64,000 bases of DNA from Burkholderiales bacterium (lineage in GTDB: Bacteria; Pseudomonadota; Gammaproteobacteria; Burkholderiales; SG8-39). The stretch lies in contig DASPMF010000296.1 in assembly GCA_035627155.1 (NCBI GenBank), positions 15,335 to 79,334 on the forward strand, in the 5' to 3' direction. Shown here one piece after another: positions 27,552 through 30,482 of the stretch; position 1 is the stretch's first letter; the number at the start of each line of letters is the position of its first letter. A program made the position numbers and the translations under genes. The notes under the pieces were generated by a model that did no database searches, was not told the DNA's origin, and was given only the letters and a program-made list of their open reading frames with translations.

Positions 27552-28612
27552 TCAGCTACCAGATCGTCGAGCATGGCCGTCCCCTGCAGAAAGTCATCTC
27601 CGAGACGCCGCGGCCGAAGGGCAGCGAGGTTCTCGTCCGCGTGACGCGCTCCGGCGTATGCCATTCGGACGTGCACATCTGGGACGGATACTTCGACTGG
27701 GGCGGCGGCAAGCGCTTCTACGTGAAGGAGCGCGGCTGCGTGCCGCCCTTCACGATGGGTCACGAGCCCTTCGGCGTCGTGGAGGCGGTCGGCCCCCGCG
27801 TGCCCAAGGGAAAAGGCGGCGTGAAGGTCGGGCAGAAGCGGCTCGTCTATCCCTGGATCGGCTGCGGCAAGTGCGCGGTGTGCAAGGGCGGCCAGGACAA
27901 CTACTGCATCTCGGGCTCGCGCTACCTCGGCGTCAACCGCGCCGGTGCCTATGCCACGCACGTGCTCGTCCCGGACGCAAAGTACCTCCTCGACACGAGC
28001 GGCCTCGACGACGCCTTTGCATCCACGCTCGCTTGCTCCGCGGTCACGGTGTACAGCGCGCTCAACAAGCTGCCTGCGCTGGGGCCGAAGGACCGGATCG
28101 CCGTGCTGGGTTGCGGTGGCCTCGGCCTGATCGCCGTATCGGTGCTCCGCGCCAAGGGGACGCGCAACATCGTCGCCTGCGACATCGACGATGCAAAGCT
28201 CGACGCAGCCCGGAAGCTTGGCGCCAGGGAAACCGTCAACACGCGAGCGCCCGACGCGCCGCAGAAACTGCAAGGGATCGCGGCCGCGGCCGATTTCGTC
28301 GGCAGTCCCGCCACCGCCGCTCTCGGGCTCGCCGCGCTGCGCAAAGGCGGCCGCTATGTGATCTGCGGCCTGTTCGGCGGCGAGCTCACGCACCCGCTGC
28401 CGCCGATCGCCCAGCGCGCCATCGGCATCGTCGGCTCCTACGTCGGCAGCCTGCAGGAACTGAAGGAAGTCGTGGCGCTGGCGAGGAAGGGGAAGATCAA
28501 GCCGACACCGGTGCAGGTGCGCCCTGCCGACCAGGCGAGCGCAGCGCTGGAAGAACTGAAGGAAGGCCGGGTGGTCGGGCGCGTGGTCCTGGACTTCGAG
28601 CGCGCTAGTTGA
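27548..28612 (+). CDS. Zinc-type alcohol dehydrogenase / MDR-family oxidoreductase
   Basis: The ATG overlaps the metY stop (ATGA). Motifs are SGVCHSDVH, GHEPFGVV, the CGKCAVCKGGQDNYC structural-Zn loop and the LGCGGLG Rossmann motif. Confidence 0.9.
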   Translation: MISYQIVEHGRPLQKVISETPRPKGSEVLVRVTRSGVCHSDVHIWDGYFDWGGGKRFYVKERGCVPPFTMGHEPFGVVEAVGPRVPKGKGGVKVGQKRLVYPWIGCGKCAVCKGGQDNYCISGSRYLGVNRAGAYATHVLVPDAKYLLDTSGLDDAFASTLACSAVTVYSALNKLPALGPKDRIAVLGCGGLGLIAVSVLRAKGTRNIVACDIDDAKLDAARKLGARETVNTRAPDAPQKLQGIAAAADFVGSPATAALGLAALRKGGRYVICGLFGGELTHPLPPIAQRAIGIVGSYVGSLQELKEVVALARKGKIKPTPVQVRPADQASAALEELKEGRVVGRVVLDFERAS

Positions 28613-30482
28613 GCTTGTAGGACACGAGCTCGATTTCGTAGTCGGCGGCCTGCGTGTTGCCGCTCTGCGTGCGCAGACGAGACTTCACGAAGCGCTTGGC
28701 CTTTTCGGCGTACCAGAACGTTGCCACGCGGACCAGACGGGTGTTCCACTGCCGCGGCCCCTGGAGCTCGACCTCGACCTTGACCGTCTCGAAGGTGCCG
28801 GCGCGGGTCCGCACCGTCTCGCGTCCATCCGCCTTCACGCTGTAGGTGCAGTCGAGAAAGCGCGCGCAAAACGCGTCGTTCGCGGCCACGAGCTCCCGTA
28901 TGCGCAGCTGGTCCGCCGCCTCGTCGAAGCTGAGCAGGTAAGGGGCGAAGTGCCAGACCGGGTACTGGATATGCAGCTCGGGCTGCGCCGAGTGCGCCCG
29001 GGACATCGGGTTGCCATAGCGCGTGAGCTCGTCGGTATCCAGGATGCCCTCCGGCGACACCGCGTTCACGGTCACCCTGGCTGTTCGCTTGTCCCGTCCG
29101 AAGGAATCCTTGTACTCGTACGTCCAGGTGTCCCCGACCTTCGGATAGCGCGGGTTGTCGACGCCCATCGCCACCGGGGTCGGCGCGACGCTCGCCACCT
29201 CCGCGCTCATGGGGGCCGGCGGCGCTTCGGATTGCGGCGGTTCCACTGTCGTCACGGGCGCAGGGGAAGGCGCCGCAGCCACAGGCTGGGCGACCGGCGT
29301 CGCGGCCACGGGGGCCGGGGTGGCGCGAATGCGCGCGAGGGCGGCGAAAGTCCCCTGGGGGTACTGGGAAAGGTAGGCCTTGTAGTCCTCGGGATTGGTG
29401 CTGTTCTTGATCGACTCCCAGAACACGACTTCGCGGTCGACCGCCGGAACGACCGGCGCCGCGGCCACCGGCGCGGGAGCAGGCGGCGGCGCGGGCGGCG
29501 GCTTGCCGGTCGCCTCGGCGCGGCGGCGCATCTCCGCTTCCAGCTCGGCGCGCTGCTTCGCGAGCATCTCCTGGATCATCTTCTGCATCTGCGCCTGCTG
29601 GGCGACCAGCTTGTCCTGCTCGCGTCGAACGGCTTCGGCCACCGCCTTCTCCAGCTGCGCCTGCTGCGCTTCGGCGGAGAGCGACGGATCCGGCGCGATG
29701 AAGAAGAAATCCCCCTTGAGCGAGGAGCTCTCCCAGGGGATCTGCCGGTCCCCGGTGTCGCGGCCCACGCCGCGCCGCACTTCCTTGAAGACCTGCTCGA
29801 TCGGCAGGCCGGCGCGGGTGATGTTCGCGAGCAGGTGCTTGGTGTACAGGCCGTTCTCGCCATCCCCGTCGGACGCCACGGACCCTGGCGCGGTCGCGAA
29901 GGCGACCAGCGTTCCGGAGGGCGCGTCCATCTGCGCGAGGCCCTGCGCGCCAGAACGGAAGGAGCGCGTGAAGGGATTGTTGCGGCAGGCGTCCAGGATG
30001 ATGAGATTCAGCGCGTTCTTGGCGCTGTCCATCTTGGCGAGGATAAAGTTCGCATCGAGCGCCCCGTCCTCCACTTCGTCTTCGCGCTCGATGTCCGCGT
30101 TGACCGGGATGAGGAAGTTGCGACCGCGAACCTGCATGCCGTGGCCGGCGTAGTAGAACAGGCCTACCCCGCCGGCCATCAGCTCGTCGCCGAAGGCACG
30201 GACCGCGCGGCGCATGGCAGTCAGCGTCGCGTCTTCGATCATCGTCACCTTGAATCCGGTTGCCGCGAGCGCCTTGGAAATGGCGCGAGCGTCGTTCACC
30301 GGATTCCGGAGCGGGGAGGTCTTGTAGGCGGAGTTGCCGATGACCAGGGCCACCCTGCGCTCGCCCGCCGGCGCAGGCGCGGACGGCTGGATCAGCAGCT
30401 GGCGATCCTGCGCGAACGCGGACGCGGCGAGCGCCATCGCCGCCAGCAGGATGATCCGGATTGCGTGCTGCGCCTTCCCCAA
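28605..30482 (-). CDS. Exported caspase-family (peptidase C14, orthocaspase-like) multidomain protein
   Basis: The signal peptide is [24 protein letters not shown]. The C14 core reads [12 protein letters not shown]...[10 protein letters not shown] (His)...[10 protein letters not shown] (Cys). It is followed by a Q/E/A-rich coiled-coil, Pro/Ala linkers and an unassigned C-terminal domain of about 200 aa. Confidence 0.85.
   Translation of the reverse strand: [625 protein letters not shown]

Follow-up and report, generated by a model that had tools for sequence, protein, structure and literature searches.

Results

Gene and Genomic Context

The window analyzed here, a stretch of 64,000 nucleotides from a Burkholderiales bacterium, carries on its reverse strand a complete gene (28605..30482; stop codon 28605-28607) for a 625-residue protein, predicted to be an exported protease of family C14 that ends in a DUF3108-like domain. 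The reading frame begins with TTG, and a Shine-Dalgarno-like GGGAGG, read directly from the sequence, lies 5 nt upstream of this start codon (30488..30493, reverse strand). The product has 7898 database homologs; the top two, at 100% (protein P0001) and 71% identity, align over the full length. Because of the Shine-Dalgarno motif and these homologs, the two best of them full-length, we regard the frame on sequence grounds as a genuine gene, not a chance product of G+C-rich DNA, as the original prediction had it when it placed a 625-residue product at 28605-30482.

The gene converges with a zinc ADH gene (27548-28612), with which it overlaps by 8 bp at the gene ends, and diverges from ggt, which starts at 30558 across a spacer of 75 bp; these coordinates agree with the arrangement proposed earlier. 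The gene had also been described as standing alone, which is correct for the window, where no other caspase paralog was found, but not for its relatives. A survey of ortholog neighborhoods, suggested with the original prediction, covered six related loci in which the slot between ggt and ADH is kept, and in five of these six the slot holds two tandem caspase paralogs that differ mainly in the DUF3108-like region. No inhibitor, NTPase, gasdermin, or effector partner was found in the window or in the six syntenic loci, which extends to the relatives an absence already remarked on for the window. Down to 47% identity the pairing with ggt is retained, and so are GST at one flank and, at the opposite flank, ADH together with O-acetylhomoserine sulfhydrylase; more remote lineages lack the pairing. 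Since these flanking genes persist equally and the pairing is eventually lost, a functional link to ggt was rejected: we take the pairing as inherited synteny rather than functional evidence, and none of the neighbors (ggt, GST, ADH, and O-acetylhomoserine sulfhydrylase) is informative on substrates. G+C content shows no anomaly, and the gene is chromosomal and vertically inherited in this Burkholderiales clade, not a mobile defense module. Scanning the locus for promoters and terminators, and the whole window against Rfam, returned nothing. The window DNA as a whole is 69% G+C and holds many long chance reading frames.

Architecture and Export

The protein consists of a Sec-type leader, a C14 domain, a long helix, a Pro/Ala-rich linker, a 38-residue TPR-like motif, a second linker, and a beta domain of 180 residues, so that the earlier description of the product holds nearly to the letter. 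A full-length AlphaFold2 (AF2) model has a pTM of 0.48, with disordered linkers and no confident contact between domains. Among the 120 best homologs, 118 combine a caspase domain with one or two DUF3108-like domains; this architecture is abundant and already annotated automatically in public databases. The window copy has no feature that distinguishes it from its relatives, and the architecture itself is unsurprising. Common in environmental Burkholderiales, this is a fairly ordinary uncharacterized gene.

Residues 1-25 (30408..30482, reverse strand) have the properties of a Sec-type signal peptide in a heuristic scan of hydrophobicity and charge, with a positive n-region, a hydrophobic core, and a cleavage motif ahead of a Gln, and the N-terminal 26 residues as a whole look signal-peptide-like. 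Inspection of the leader revealed neither a lipobox Cys nor a twin-Arg motif. By the same heuristics, an equivalent leader is present in all 37 aligned homologs, in line with the Sec-type signal peptide of the original prediction. Export is very likely, judging from the leaders. The mature protein contains only three cysteines, namely the catalytic residue and a conserved pair, C539/C545, which favors export; the free catalytic thiol would have to withstand the oxidizing periplasm, which counts against a periplasmic protease. In one relative the two parts are encoded by separate genes: a C14 protein with a Tat-type RRRWL leader, a further sign of export, is followed 8 bp downstream by a gene for a DUF3108-like domain that has no leader of its own. 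Because only the caspase part carries an export signal, this arrangement is a hint that the two parts associate with each other and are possibly exported together.

The Catalytic Domain

Residues 42-260 (29703..30359, reverse strand) form a Peptidase C14 (caspase/paracaspase-like) catalytic domain, according to Pfam, alignment with MALT1, invariant columns, and Foldseek. The match to PF00656 (E = 2e-40; 139.3 bits, cut-off 21.4) spans model positions 1-233 of 233. The catalytic His, H114 (30141-30143, reverse strand), lies within YYAGHG, and the catalytic Cys, C166 (29985-29987, reverse strand), within LDACR. They align with MALT1 H415 and C464, respectively, so that the dyad occupies its canonical positions and is intact, as originally claimed. 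The His motif YYAGHGMQV was found at residues 110-118 as given; the Cys motif exists as well, and reads as 11 residues where 10 had been given, a single Ile having been left out, a trivial difference. D64, D164, and D205 align with MALT1 D365, D462, and E500, which are S1-pocket residues (PMC4357240). All five positions, H114, C166, D64, D164, and D205, are invariant in an alignment of 37 homologs, as is an Arg-rich loop, CRNNPFxRxFRS (residues 166-177), in which R173 and R176 are candidate sites of autoprocessing or activation. The intact dyad and conserved S1 residues suggest that the enzyme is active as a peptidase, and the conservation of the acidic S1 triad of MALT1 as D64/D164/D205 predicts cleavage after Arg or Lys in the P1 position.

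In the AF2 model of this region pLDDT is mostly 85-97. The top 50 Foldseek matches comprise MALT1 entries, caspases-3, -7, -9, and -11, and CED-3, with E values down to 3e-15; the best fold match is MALT1 (3v4o_A, E = 1.2e-14, 28% identity, TMt 0.77), which is also the best PDB match by sequence (E about 6e-16). Across phyla the catalytic domain is 50%-60% identical. We consider it, from the modeled structure, to be a full caspase fold closest to the paracaspase MALT1. This makes the label orthocaspase, used in the original prediction, a loose one. Orthocaspases are defined as prokaryotic proteins with a p20 domain and without a p10 domain (PMC6426788); the window protein carries the dyad and comes from a prokaryote, but it matches the Pfam model, including the C-terminal p10 region, end to end, and its structural alignment with MALT1 covers about 250 columns.

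Helix, Linkers, and the TPR-Like Module

The catalytic domain is followed by a long alpha-helix rich in Q, E, A, and R (residues 270-325; 29508..29675, reverse strand; AF2/DSSP). A coiled coil of about 60 residues had been proposed here; the helix is indeed single and long, but in a heptad test at most 33% of a/d positions were strong hydrophobics, a weak pattern for a coiled coil. It may serve as a spacer or as an oligomerization helix. Matches of TIGR02680 and JetC to this helix were rejected as low-complexity noise.

Two disordered linkers flank a small helical module, much as the original prediction of two Pro/Ala linkers around a motif would have it. Linker 1 (Pro/Ala-rich, residues 326-349; 29436..29507, reverse strand) has a pLDDT below 50 at residues 336-348 and differs in length among homologs. 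Linker 2 (rich in Pro, Ala, and Val, residues 388-444; 29151..29321, reverse strand), with a pLDDT below 50 at residues 391-438, is highly variable in both length and sequence. The module between them (residues 350-387; 29322..29435, reverse strand), identified from the AF2 model and from conservation, has three helices (350-358, 364-373, and 380-387) at a pLDDT of about 90. It includes the FWESIK...ALARIR motif, with the consensus FWxSIKxSxNPxDFxAYLxQYPxGxFAxLA, and is optional, occurring in zero to three copies among relatives. The FWxSIK motif matched no Pfam family and had no solid PDB match, yielding only weak BamD/YfiO/TPR-like similarities (E 0.02-0.2), with BamD-like lipoproteins among the matches. 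From this weak similarity, the 38-residue module is probably a TPR-like hairpin unit of the BamD/YfiO type. A weak tblastn match of the motif at 46332-46433 in the window falls on the junction of unrelated reading frames and was dismissed as chance.

The C-Terminal Domain

Residues 445-625 (28608..29150, reverse strand) form an all-beta domain of 180 residues, delimited with Pfam, a PDB profile search, AF2, and Foldseek, in which GDxWxY, P514, AGxF, W590, and KRxVK are invariant and the Cys pair C539/C545 nearly so. Against PF11306 (DUF3108) and PF21347 (DUF3108_like) the window domain scores 21.5 and 16.7 bits, below the Pfam cut-offs of 26 and 27, respectively. At E<0.1, however, 25 of 29 family members match DUF3108 and 27 of 29 match DUF3108_like, and relatives found with the domain profile exceed the cut-offs (P0129, 35.5 bits on PF21347; P0137, 40.9 bits on PF11306). 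When the whole protein was compared with PDB sequences, nothing matched beyond residue 265, and a family profile was needed: built from 29 sequences, it matched 4fvs_A (E = 1.6e-5) and 3fzx_A (E = 1.3e-3) over a common AGxF...WY region. The AF2 model of the domain (pLDDT 95, pTM 0.91) retrieved the same structures with Foldseek (3fzx, E = 3.8e-6; 4fvs, E = 3.4e-5; ranks 1-3 at a probability of 1.00 and moderate TM scores of 0.51-0.53), with YmcC (2in5) at rank 5 and LolA and LolB lower (TM 0.28-0.36); Pfam gave no LolA or LolB match. Profile and model together indicate a remote relative of DUF3108/DUF3108_like with a YmcC-like, LolA-related fold. The domain, in which the original prediction recognized nothing, is therefore recognizable, with 3FZX and 4FVS as the best matches; the beta character assigned to it was correct, the label unassigned was not. 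It now maps to a catalogued, not a well-characterized, domain in an abundant architecture, and the refuting condition set with the original prediction thereby applies in part.

An exhaustive HMM search with the domain returned 4376 cluster representatives among 1.84 billion proteins; word-indexed searches, limited by their index, returned two proteins with a single sequence and 16 with an alignment. Beyond the fusion seen here and the split gene pair, the domain forms a lipoprotein by itself (P0147, lipobox MFLAGC) and caps Ser/Thr kinases on their extracytoplasmic side, where Pkinase is followed by a TM helix, an A/E/K-rich helical spacer of about 170-200 residues, and the domain. No second copy was found elsewhere in the window. 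Open-access literature on DUF3108 yielded no link to caspases, and a literature search found no report of periplasmic caspase-LolA-type fusions. To our knowledge, the DUF3108/YmcC-like families have neither a known function nor a known ligand.

Discussion

How does this protein relate to known caspase-like proteases? With human MALT1 (family C14B; PDB 3V4O and 3UO8) it shares a single-chain caspase domain, the His/Cys dyad, and the acidic S1 triad. Unlike MALT1, which has a death domain, Ig-like domains, and partners of the CARMA/BCL10 type, it has none of these; it is bacterial, carries a signal peptide for export, and continues after the C14 domain with a helix, a TPR-like motif, and a DUF3108-like domain. 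Neither Ig nor death-domain families appeared among its Pfam matches at E<=1, and the flanking domains that define a MALT1-type paracaspase by architecture are thus missing. Bacterial orthocaspases or metacaspase-like proteases, such as Microcystis MaOC1 (surveyed in PMC6426788 and PMC4933709), have in common with it a prokaryotic C14 domain with the HC dyad and an acidic specificity pocket, as well as C-terminal accessory domains that vary, and like this protein type they are abundant in Betaproteobacteria. In contrast to the window protein, with its Sec leader and match to the full Pfam caspase model, the characterized orthocaspases are cytoplasmic and cyanobacterial.

The C-terminal domain shares the AGxF...WY...V signature and an exported or lipoprotein context with the DUF3108 proteins 3FZX (BF2203), 4FVS (BDI_3050), and E. 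coli YmcC (2IN5). Those are stand-alone proteins from Bacteroidetes and E. coli solved by structural genomics, whereas the window domain is fused to a protease, and the resemblance is distant (13%-17% identity, TM about 0.5, below Pfam thresholds). With the LolA, LolB, and RseB half-barrels it has the broad fold class and a periplasmic location in common, but at a TM of about 0.3-0.36 and with no sequence similarity they offer an analogy of mechanism, not membership; as LolA and LolB appear only as low-ranking Foldseek matches with no Pfam match, we do not assign the domain to these carriers. In betaproteobacterial Ser/Thr kinases, DUF3108-like relatives hold the topological position that PASTA has in PknB. 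The window protein lacks a kinase domain, and this comparison concerns the role of the shared module alone.

Based on these similarities and on analogy with the LolA/YmcC fold class, we tentatively propose, at a probability of roughly 0.45, that the gene encodes a periplasmic, Arg/Lys-specific C14 protease that is docked or regulated by an envelope-ligand-binding module. Sec export would place the cysteine protease in the cell envelope, where the long helix and the two disordered Pro/Ala linkers would tether it to the YmcC-like domain. This domain may bind an envelope component, such as a lipid, a lipoprotein acyl chain, or an outer-membrane-associated ligand; such binding is suggested because the domain is also met with on its own as a lipoprotein, at the periplasmic tip of kinases, and as a separate gene beside a caspase gene. 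It could thereby dock the protease at an envelope site, or couple its activity to that site, where the enzyme would process or turn over envelope proteins.

It is conceivable that the DUF3108-like domain serves as a sensor rather than an anchor, making the enzyme a ligand-gated periplasmic protease: an envelope signal (for instance mislocalized lipid, LPS, or lipoprotein) would relieve autoinhibition or cluster the caspase domains, and the same signal would reach Ser/Thr kinases. We think this rather unlikely. The same domain family does occupy the sensor position of transmembrane Ser/Thr kinases, the number of domains varies between one and two, and tandem paralogs differ mainly there. There are precedents as well, since proteases of the MALT1 type rely on induced proximity for activation, and the LPS-responsive, LolA-like protein RseB gates a cascade of proteolysis in the periplasm. 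However, the AF2 model places no domain in confident contact with another and its linkers are disordered, the helix at 270-325 has no clear heptad pattern that would support dimerization, a sensor position in kinases is no proof of a sensing role in a protease, and both the autoinhibition and the ligand are hypothetical. In its boldest form, which we judge unlikely, the module would be devoted to sensing, in the periplasm, a lipid or lipoprotein signal of the envelope; Burkholderiales would use it interchangeably in two eukaryote-like signaling enzymes, a MALT1-like caspase protease and Hanks-type Ser/Thr kinases, and the gene would encode a ligand-activated caspase switch acting by induced proximity or by activation at the outer membrane, not in housekeeping or nutrition.

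A nutritional role is distinctly unlikely. Such a protease, extracellular or on the surface, would degrade external protein for nitrogen and carbon, its C-terminal domain binding substrate or surface; the signal peptide, the linkers, long and flexible as is usual in secreted multidomain hydrolases, and the peptide-handling enzymes encoded by the divergent ggt and a nearby aminopeptidase gene are compatible with this, and the authors of a Baltic Sea survey speculate that metacaspases of Betaproteobacteria break down protein outside the cell (PMC4933709). Yet the gene shows no linkage to secretion genes or to an outer-membrane export signal, whether of type II, type V, or another kind, a strictly Arg/Lys-specific caspase-type enzyme would make a poor bulk protease, the conservation of the catalytic domain across phyla suggests a constrained, specific role, and the occurrence of the partner domain on inner-membrane kinases and periplasmic lipoproteins points to the periplasm. 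It is very unlikely that the protein is an effector of conflict or programmed cell death, that is, an anti-phage or abortive-infection caspase comparable to gasdermin-activating or NTPase-coupled ones; the slot is lined by conserved housekeeping genes, which do not form a defense island. A match to the generic PADLOC caspase model (47 bits) and a weak one to NCBIfam caspase_w_EACC1 would fit such an effector, and the tandem paralogs with their variable C-terminal region could hint at diversification. But the EACC1 score (NF047832) of 62.6 bits falls short of the cut-off of 140, with no NTPase or effector genes alongside, so that we do not count the protein among EACC1-associated caspases. Known defense systems of this kind are cytoplasmic, whereas this protein begins with a signal peptide; neither the window nor the six syntenic loci contain a gasdermin, NTPase, TIR, CRISPR, or other partner gene, and G+C content is unremarkable. 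With matches that are generic or below threshold and neighborhoods lacking partner genes, the defense reading was rejected. That the caspase fold is a catalytically dead scaffold, used for binding alone, is scarcely credible: pseudo-orthocaspases are common in some bacteria but, among Betaproteobacteria, reportedly account for just 2 of 667 sequences (PMC6426788), which makes them very rare there, and the His, Cys, and three acidic S1 residues are invariant in the homologs.

What would be the relevance of the proposed docked or regulated caspase-like protease in the envelope? We know of almost no bacterial caspase homolog with a known substrate or role, and the few that have been studied are cytoplasmic. 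Over 11,000 bacterial homologs have been catalogued (PMC6426788), and the gene described here is part of a large subfamily that is exported and well conserved, with a clear Arg/Lys P1 prediction and an accessory module shared with transmembrane kinases. Seen here as metagenome-assembled genomes only, the related genera Polaromonas, Rubrivivax, and Rhizobacter have cultured members. If the sensor proposal held, it would amount to a ligand-activated periplasmic caspase switch, which is not known to have been described in a bacterial envelope. Given the specificity prediction, the module shared with kinases, and the cultured genera, the subfamily therefore offers a reasonable entry point to the role of periplasmic caspase-like proteases and to the function of DUF3108/YmcC-like domains.

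Results

The caspase-like gene (28605..30482, minus strand) is listed as a 625-aa ORF with a TTG start, and a GGGAGG Shine-Dalgarno sequence can be read 5 nt upstream of it. At 68–70% G+C, the window carries long ORFs in many frames and ORF length alone is weak evidence, but this ORF has 7898 database homologues, among them one metagenomic protein at 100% identity and full-length relatives ranging from 71% down to 44%. Two long plus-strand ORFs nearby are high-G+C artefacts: one of 1065 aa (28950–32147) fuses an antisense reading of the caspase gene with ggt proper, and one of 772 aa (26294–28612) runs out of frame over the O-acetylhomoserine sulfhydrylase gene and on into the true ADH gene. 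The gene lies, as the original prediction had it, convergent with a zinc ADH gene (27548–28612, start at 27548, 354 aa), the two 3' ends overlapping by 8 bp (28605–28612), and divergent from ggt (529 aa, start at 30558) across a 75-bp spacer. No terminator-like structure was found between the convergent ends, the sole matches being weak and internal to the caspase gene (~29710–29727), and the whole 64-kb window gave no riboswitch, tRNA, rRNA or sRNA family match in Rfam at gathering thresholds. The ORF contains the 26-residue leader, the YYAGHGMQV motif, the 12-residue and second Pro/Ala linkers, the 33-residue motif and the C-terminal beta region that had been read from the sequence; the cysteine motif is also present, although its true reading has 11 residues, one Ile having been dropped. 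The observation as a whole is thus confirmed, and its interpretation partly supported.

The Pfam Peptidase_C14 model matches residues 42–260 over its full length (positions 1–233 of 233, E=2e-40). The closest solved proteins by sequence are all entries of the human paracaspase MALT1 (E ~6e-16), and Foldseek with the AF2 model likewise places MALT1 first (3v4o_A, E=1.2e-14, 28% identity, TMt 0.77), followed by caspases-7, -3, -9 and -11 and CED-3. HMMER aligns H114 and C166 with H415 and C464 of MALT1, placing the claimed His/Cys dyad at the canonical positions, and sets D64, D164 and D205 against Asp365, Asp462 and Glu500; MALT1 residues were numbered by counting along the aligned sequence on the basis of the 49-residue His415–Cys464 spacing. 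These three acidic residues are determinants of P1-Arg specificity in MALT1 (PMC4357240). Because the dyad and the acidic S1 trio both match MALT1 and are invariant in 37 full-length homologues, we infer that the product is an active enzyme cleaving after Arg or Lys. The segment following the catalytic cysteine, C-R-N-N-P-F-x-R-x-F-R-S...GLAQMDAP, is nearly invariant and is modeled at lower confidence (pLDDT 57–78); within it, R173 and R176 are plausible candidate autoprocessing sites. The caspase domain is 50–60% identical across phyla. Lacking both Ig and death domains, the protein does not qualify as a paracaspase as defined in PMC6426788. It matches the Pfam model, whose C-terminal part is the p10 region, end to end, and may be either an orthocaspase, a class defined as having no p10, or metacaspase-like.

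Export of the product is strongly suggested by its sequence family. In each of the 37 aligned homologues the N-terminus is positively charged and leads into a hydrophobic core and a small-x-small site, which precedes a conserved (D/E)RxL...P segment; neither a lipobox nor a twin-arginine motif is present in the window protein. Apart from the catalytic C166, the mature protein contains only two cysteines, C539 and C545; they are a near-invariant pair in the C-terminal domain, compatible with a disulfide in an oxidizing compartment.

AF2 models the region behind the protease domain as one unbroken helix (residues 270–325), a disordered Pro/Ala linker, a confident three-helix unit (350–387) bearing the FWxSIK...YPxGxFAxLA motif, and a second disordered linker (391–438). 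The helix is where a Q/E/A-rich coiled coil had been proposed, but the coiled coil itself is unproven: a heptad register test placed strong hydrophobic residues at no more than 33% of a/d positions, and a single E/R/K/Q-rich helix serving as a spacer is equally possible. The FWxSIK motif belongs to no Pfam family and has only weak similarities, to TPR hairpins of the BamD/YfiO type. It is optional, with 0–3 copies among the 120 best homologues, and occurs on the cytoplasmic side of the transmembrane helix in a Ser/Thr kinase (P0176); the unit is therefore a generic small helical module rather than an envelope-specific one.

The C-terminal domain (residues ~445–625), which had been left unassigned, can be placed in a known family. 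As a single sequence it falls below the Pfam cut-offs (DUF3108, 21.5 bits against 26; DUF3108_like, 16.7 bits against 27), whereas 25 and 27 of 29 aligned family members match the respective models. A profile of these 29 sequences finds the solved proteins 4FVS (E=1.6e-5) and 3FZX (E=1.3e-3), titled in the PDB as a "putative lipoprotein" and a "putative exported protein with YmcC-like fold", with which the domain has the signature ExVtvPAGtF...WYa...V in common. The AF2 model is all-beta (pLDDT 95, pTM 0.91), and its top Foldseek matches in the PDB are again 3FZX and 4FVS (probability 1.0, TM 0.51–0.53), followed by E. coli YmcC and then, at lower TM, by many LolA, LolB and LolA-superfamily entries. 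Since family-wide Pfam matches, profile hits and the predicted structure agree, the domain belongs, as a remote member, to the DUF3108/YmcC-like group, which is part of the LolA-like fold class. The family is catalogued but uncharacterized; PMC4364669 refers to DUF3108 proteins as YmcC-fold proteins of the outer membrane, and the open-access literature mentioning DUF3108 makes no link to caspases.

Searched exhaustively with an HMM, 1.84 billion cluster representatives yielded 4376 proteins at E<=1e-3 (157 at E<=1e-30), among which the DUF3108-like domain turns up repeatedly in envelope settings and shows genetic coupling to caspases. Of the window protein's 120 best homologues, 118 carry a caspase domain followed by one or two copies. 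The domain also forms the C-terminus of Hanks-type Ser/Thr kinases, where, in P0176 and P0242, a transmembrane helix and an A/E/K-rich helical segment of ~170–200 residues separate it from the kinase, an order that would put it at the far, extracytoplasmic end. The Hanks-type kinases found in the database, P0129, P0137, P0172, P0180 and the two just named, share a transmembrane helix, a long A/E/K-rich helical repeat region and, at the extracytoplasmic end, one or two DUF3108-like copies. In another protein (P0147) the domain stands alone behind a lipobox (MFLAGC). Lastly, in two MAG loci (L087, 6905–8720, and L088), a separate 239-aa DUF3108-like gene starts 8 bp after a 362-aa C14 gene, a fission/fusion ("Rosetta-stone") pair that supports a functional link between caspase and domain, and probably a physical one. 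The L087 caspase has a Tat-like leader (NSRRRWLAQ) and an FW/IWxxIK motif, while its partner, from the predicted start codon, has no obvious leader; we speculate that "hitch-hiker" co-export of a complex by Tat would fit this arrangement. A further stand-alone relative (P0262, 217 aa; L086, 8001–8654) lies within a tryptophan-biosynthesis cluster on a 1.2-Mb contig, between trpB-like (PALP) and trpA genes and near accD, folC and a SPOR-domain gene.

The order GST–ggt, divergent caspase gene or genes, then convergent ADH–O-acetylhomoserine sulfhydrylase is kept in six related loci (L001, L002, L081/L082, L083, L084 and L085), whose caspases are 47–71% identical to the query. Relatives come from MAGs of uncultured Burkholderiales and Betaproteobacteria, among them Polaromonas, Rubrivivax, Rhizobacter, Methylibium and Rhodocyclaceae. 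Five of the six loci carry two tandem caspase paralogues in this slot (L081, 10001–14379; L083, 7723–11884; L084, 5479–9863; also L001 and L002), usually with at least one paralogue having two C-terminal domains. The short and long paralogues are swapped in order between L081 and L083, and an 841-aa gene in L084 annotated as having no Pfam domain comprises a caspase domain, the motif and two C-terminal domains. The gene does stand alone in the window, as first described, but L085 also has a single copy, and pairs are the commoner state. With a gap of 75 bp on the ggt side and overlapping 3' ends on the ADH side, the window has no space for a paralogue remnant. The slot gains, loses or rearranges caspase paralogues. 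More distant lineages have one to three paralogues in unrelated contexts, and the linkage to ggt appears to reflect inherited synteny and not a functional operon. Beyond ggt and GST runs a conserved series of PF10023 aminopeptidase-like, alpha/beta hydrolase, 4HBT thioesterase and HpcH/HpaI lyase-like genes (ORFs at 32756–33850 and 33751–34359, minus strand). Its synteny extends to L081, L083 and L085 and, in part, to L001 and L002; the PF10023 ORF has an apparent lipoprotein-type N-terminus (…LLGGCDT).

Discussion

We propose, at a probability of roughly 45%, that the product is a protease docked in the cell envelope. It would reach the periplasm and cleave after Arg or Lys, while its C-terminal domain would bind an envelope component, thereby positioning the protease or turning it on. 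The simplest guess is a hydrophobic ligand associated with the outer membrane, in keeping with the fold class, with the versions that are lipoproteins and with the position of the domain behind long spacers in the kinases, spacers that may be long enough to span the periplasm. The model builds on a conserved, complete C14 apparatus whose S1 pocket is acidic, on an N-terminal leader and on flexible tethers. A catalytically dead scaffold is most improbable.

The main rival is a sensor protease gated by a ligand, and we regard it as unlikely. A secreted nutritional protease, a role speculated for betaproteobacterial metacaspases (PMC4933709), ranks somewhat below it. A conflict or cell-death effector seems very unlikely: PADLOC does report a caspase match, but a generic one, with the NCBIfam model for EACC1-type caspases the protein reaches 62.6 bits, below the cut-off of 140, and the gene shows no compositional anomaly. 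Nor does any inhibitor, NTPase, gasdermin or other partner gene recur in the window or the related loci, in agreement with the original prediction.

The combination of a caspase with DUF3108-like domains is abundant and already auto-annotated in public data, where precomputed annotation reads "caspase family protein" with PF00656 plus PF11306/PF21347. What the present analysis offers is a set of testable handles, namely a module common to exported caspases and transmembrane kinases, a split-gene pair and a clear specificity prediction, on two poorly understood families, the bacterial caspase homologues and the DUF3108/YmcC-like domains.
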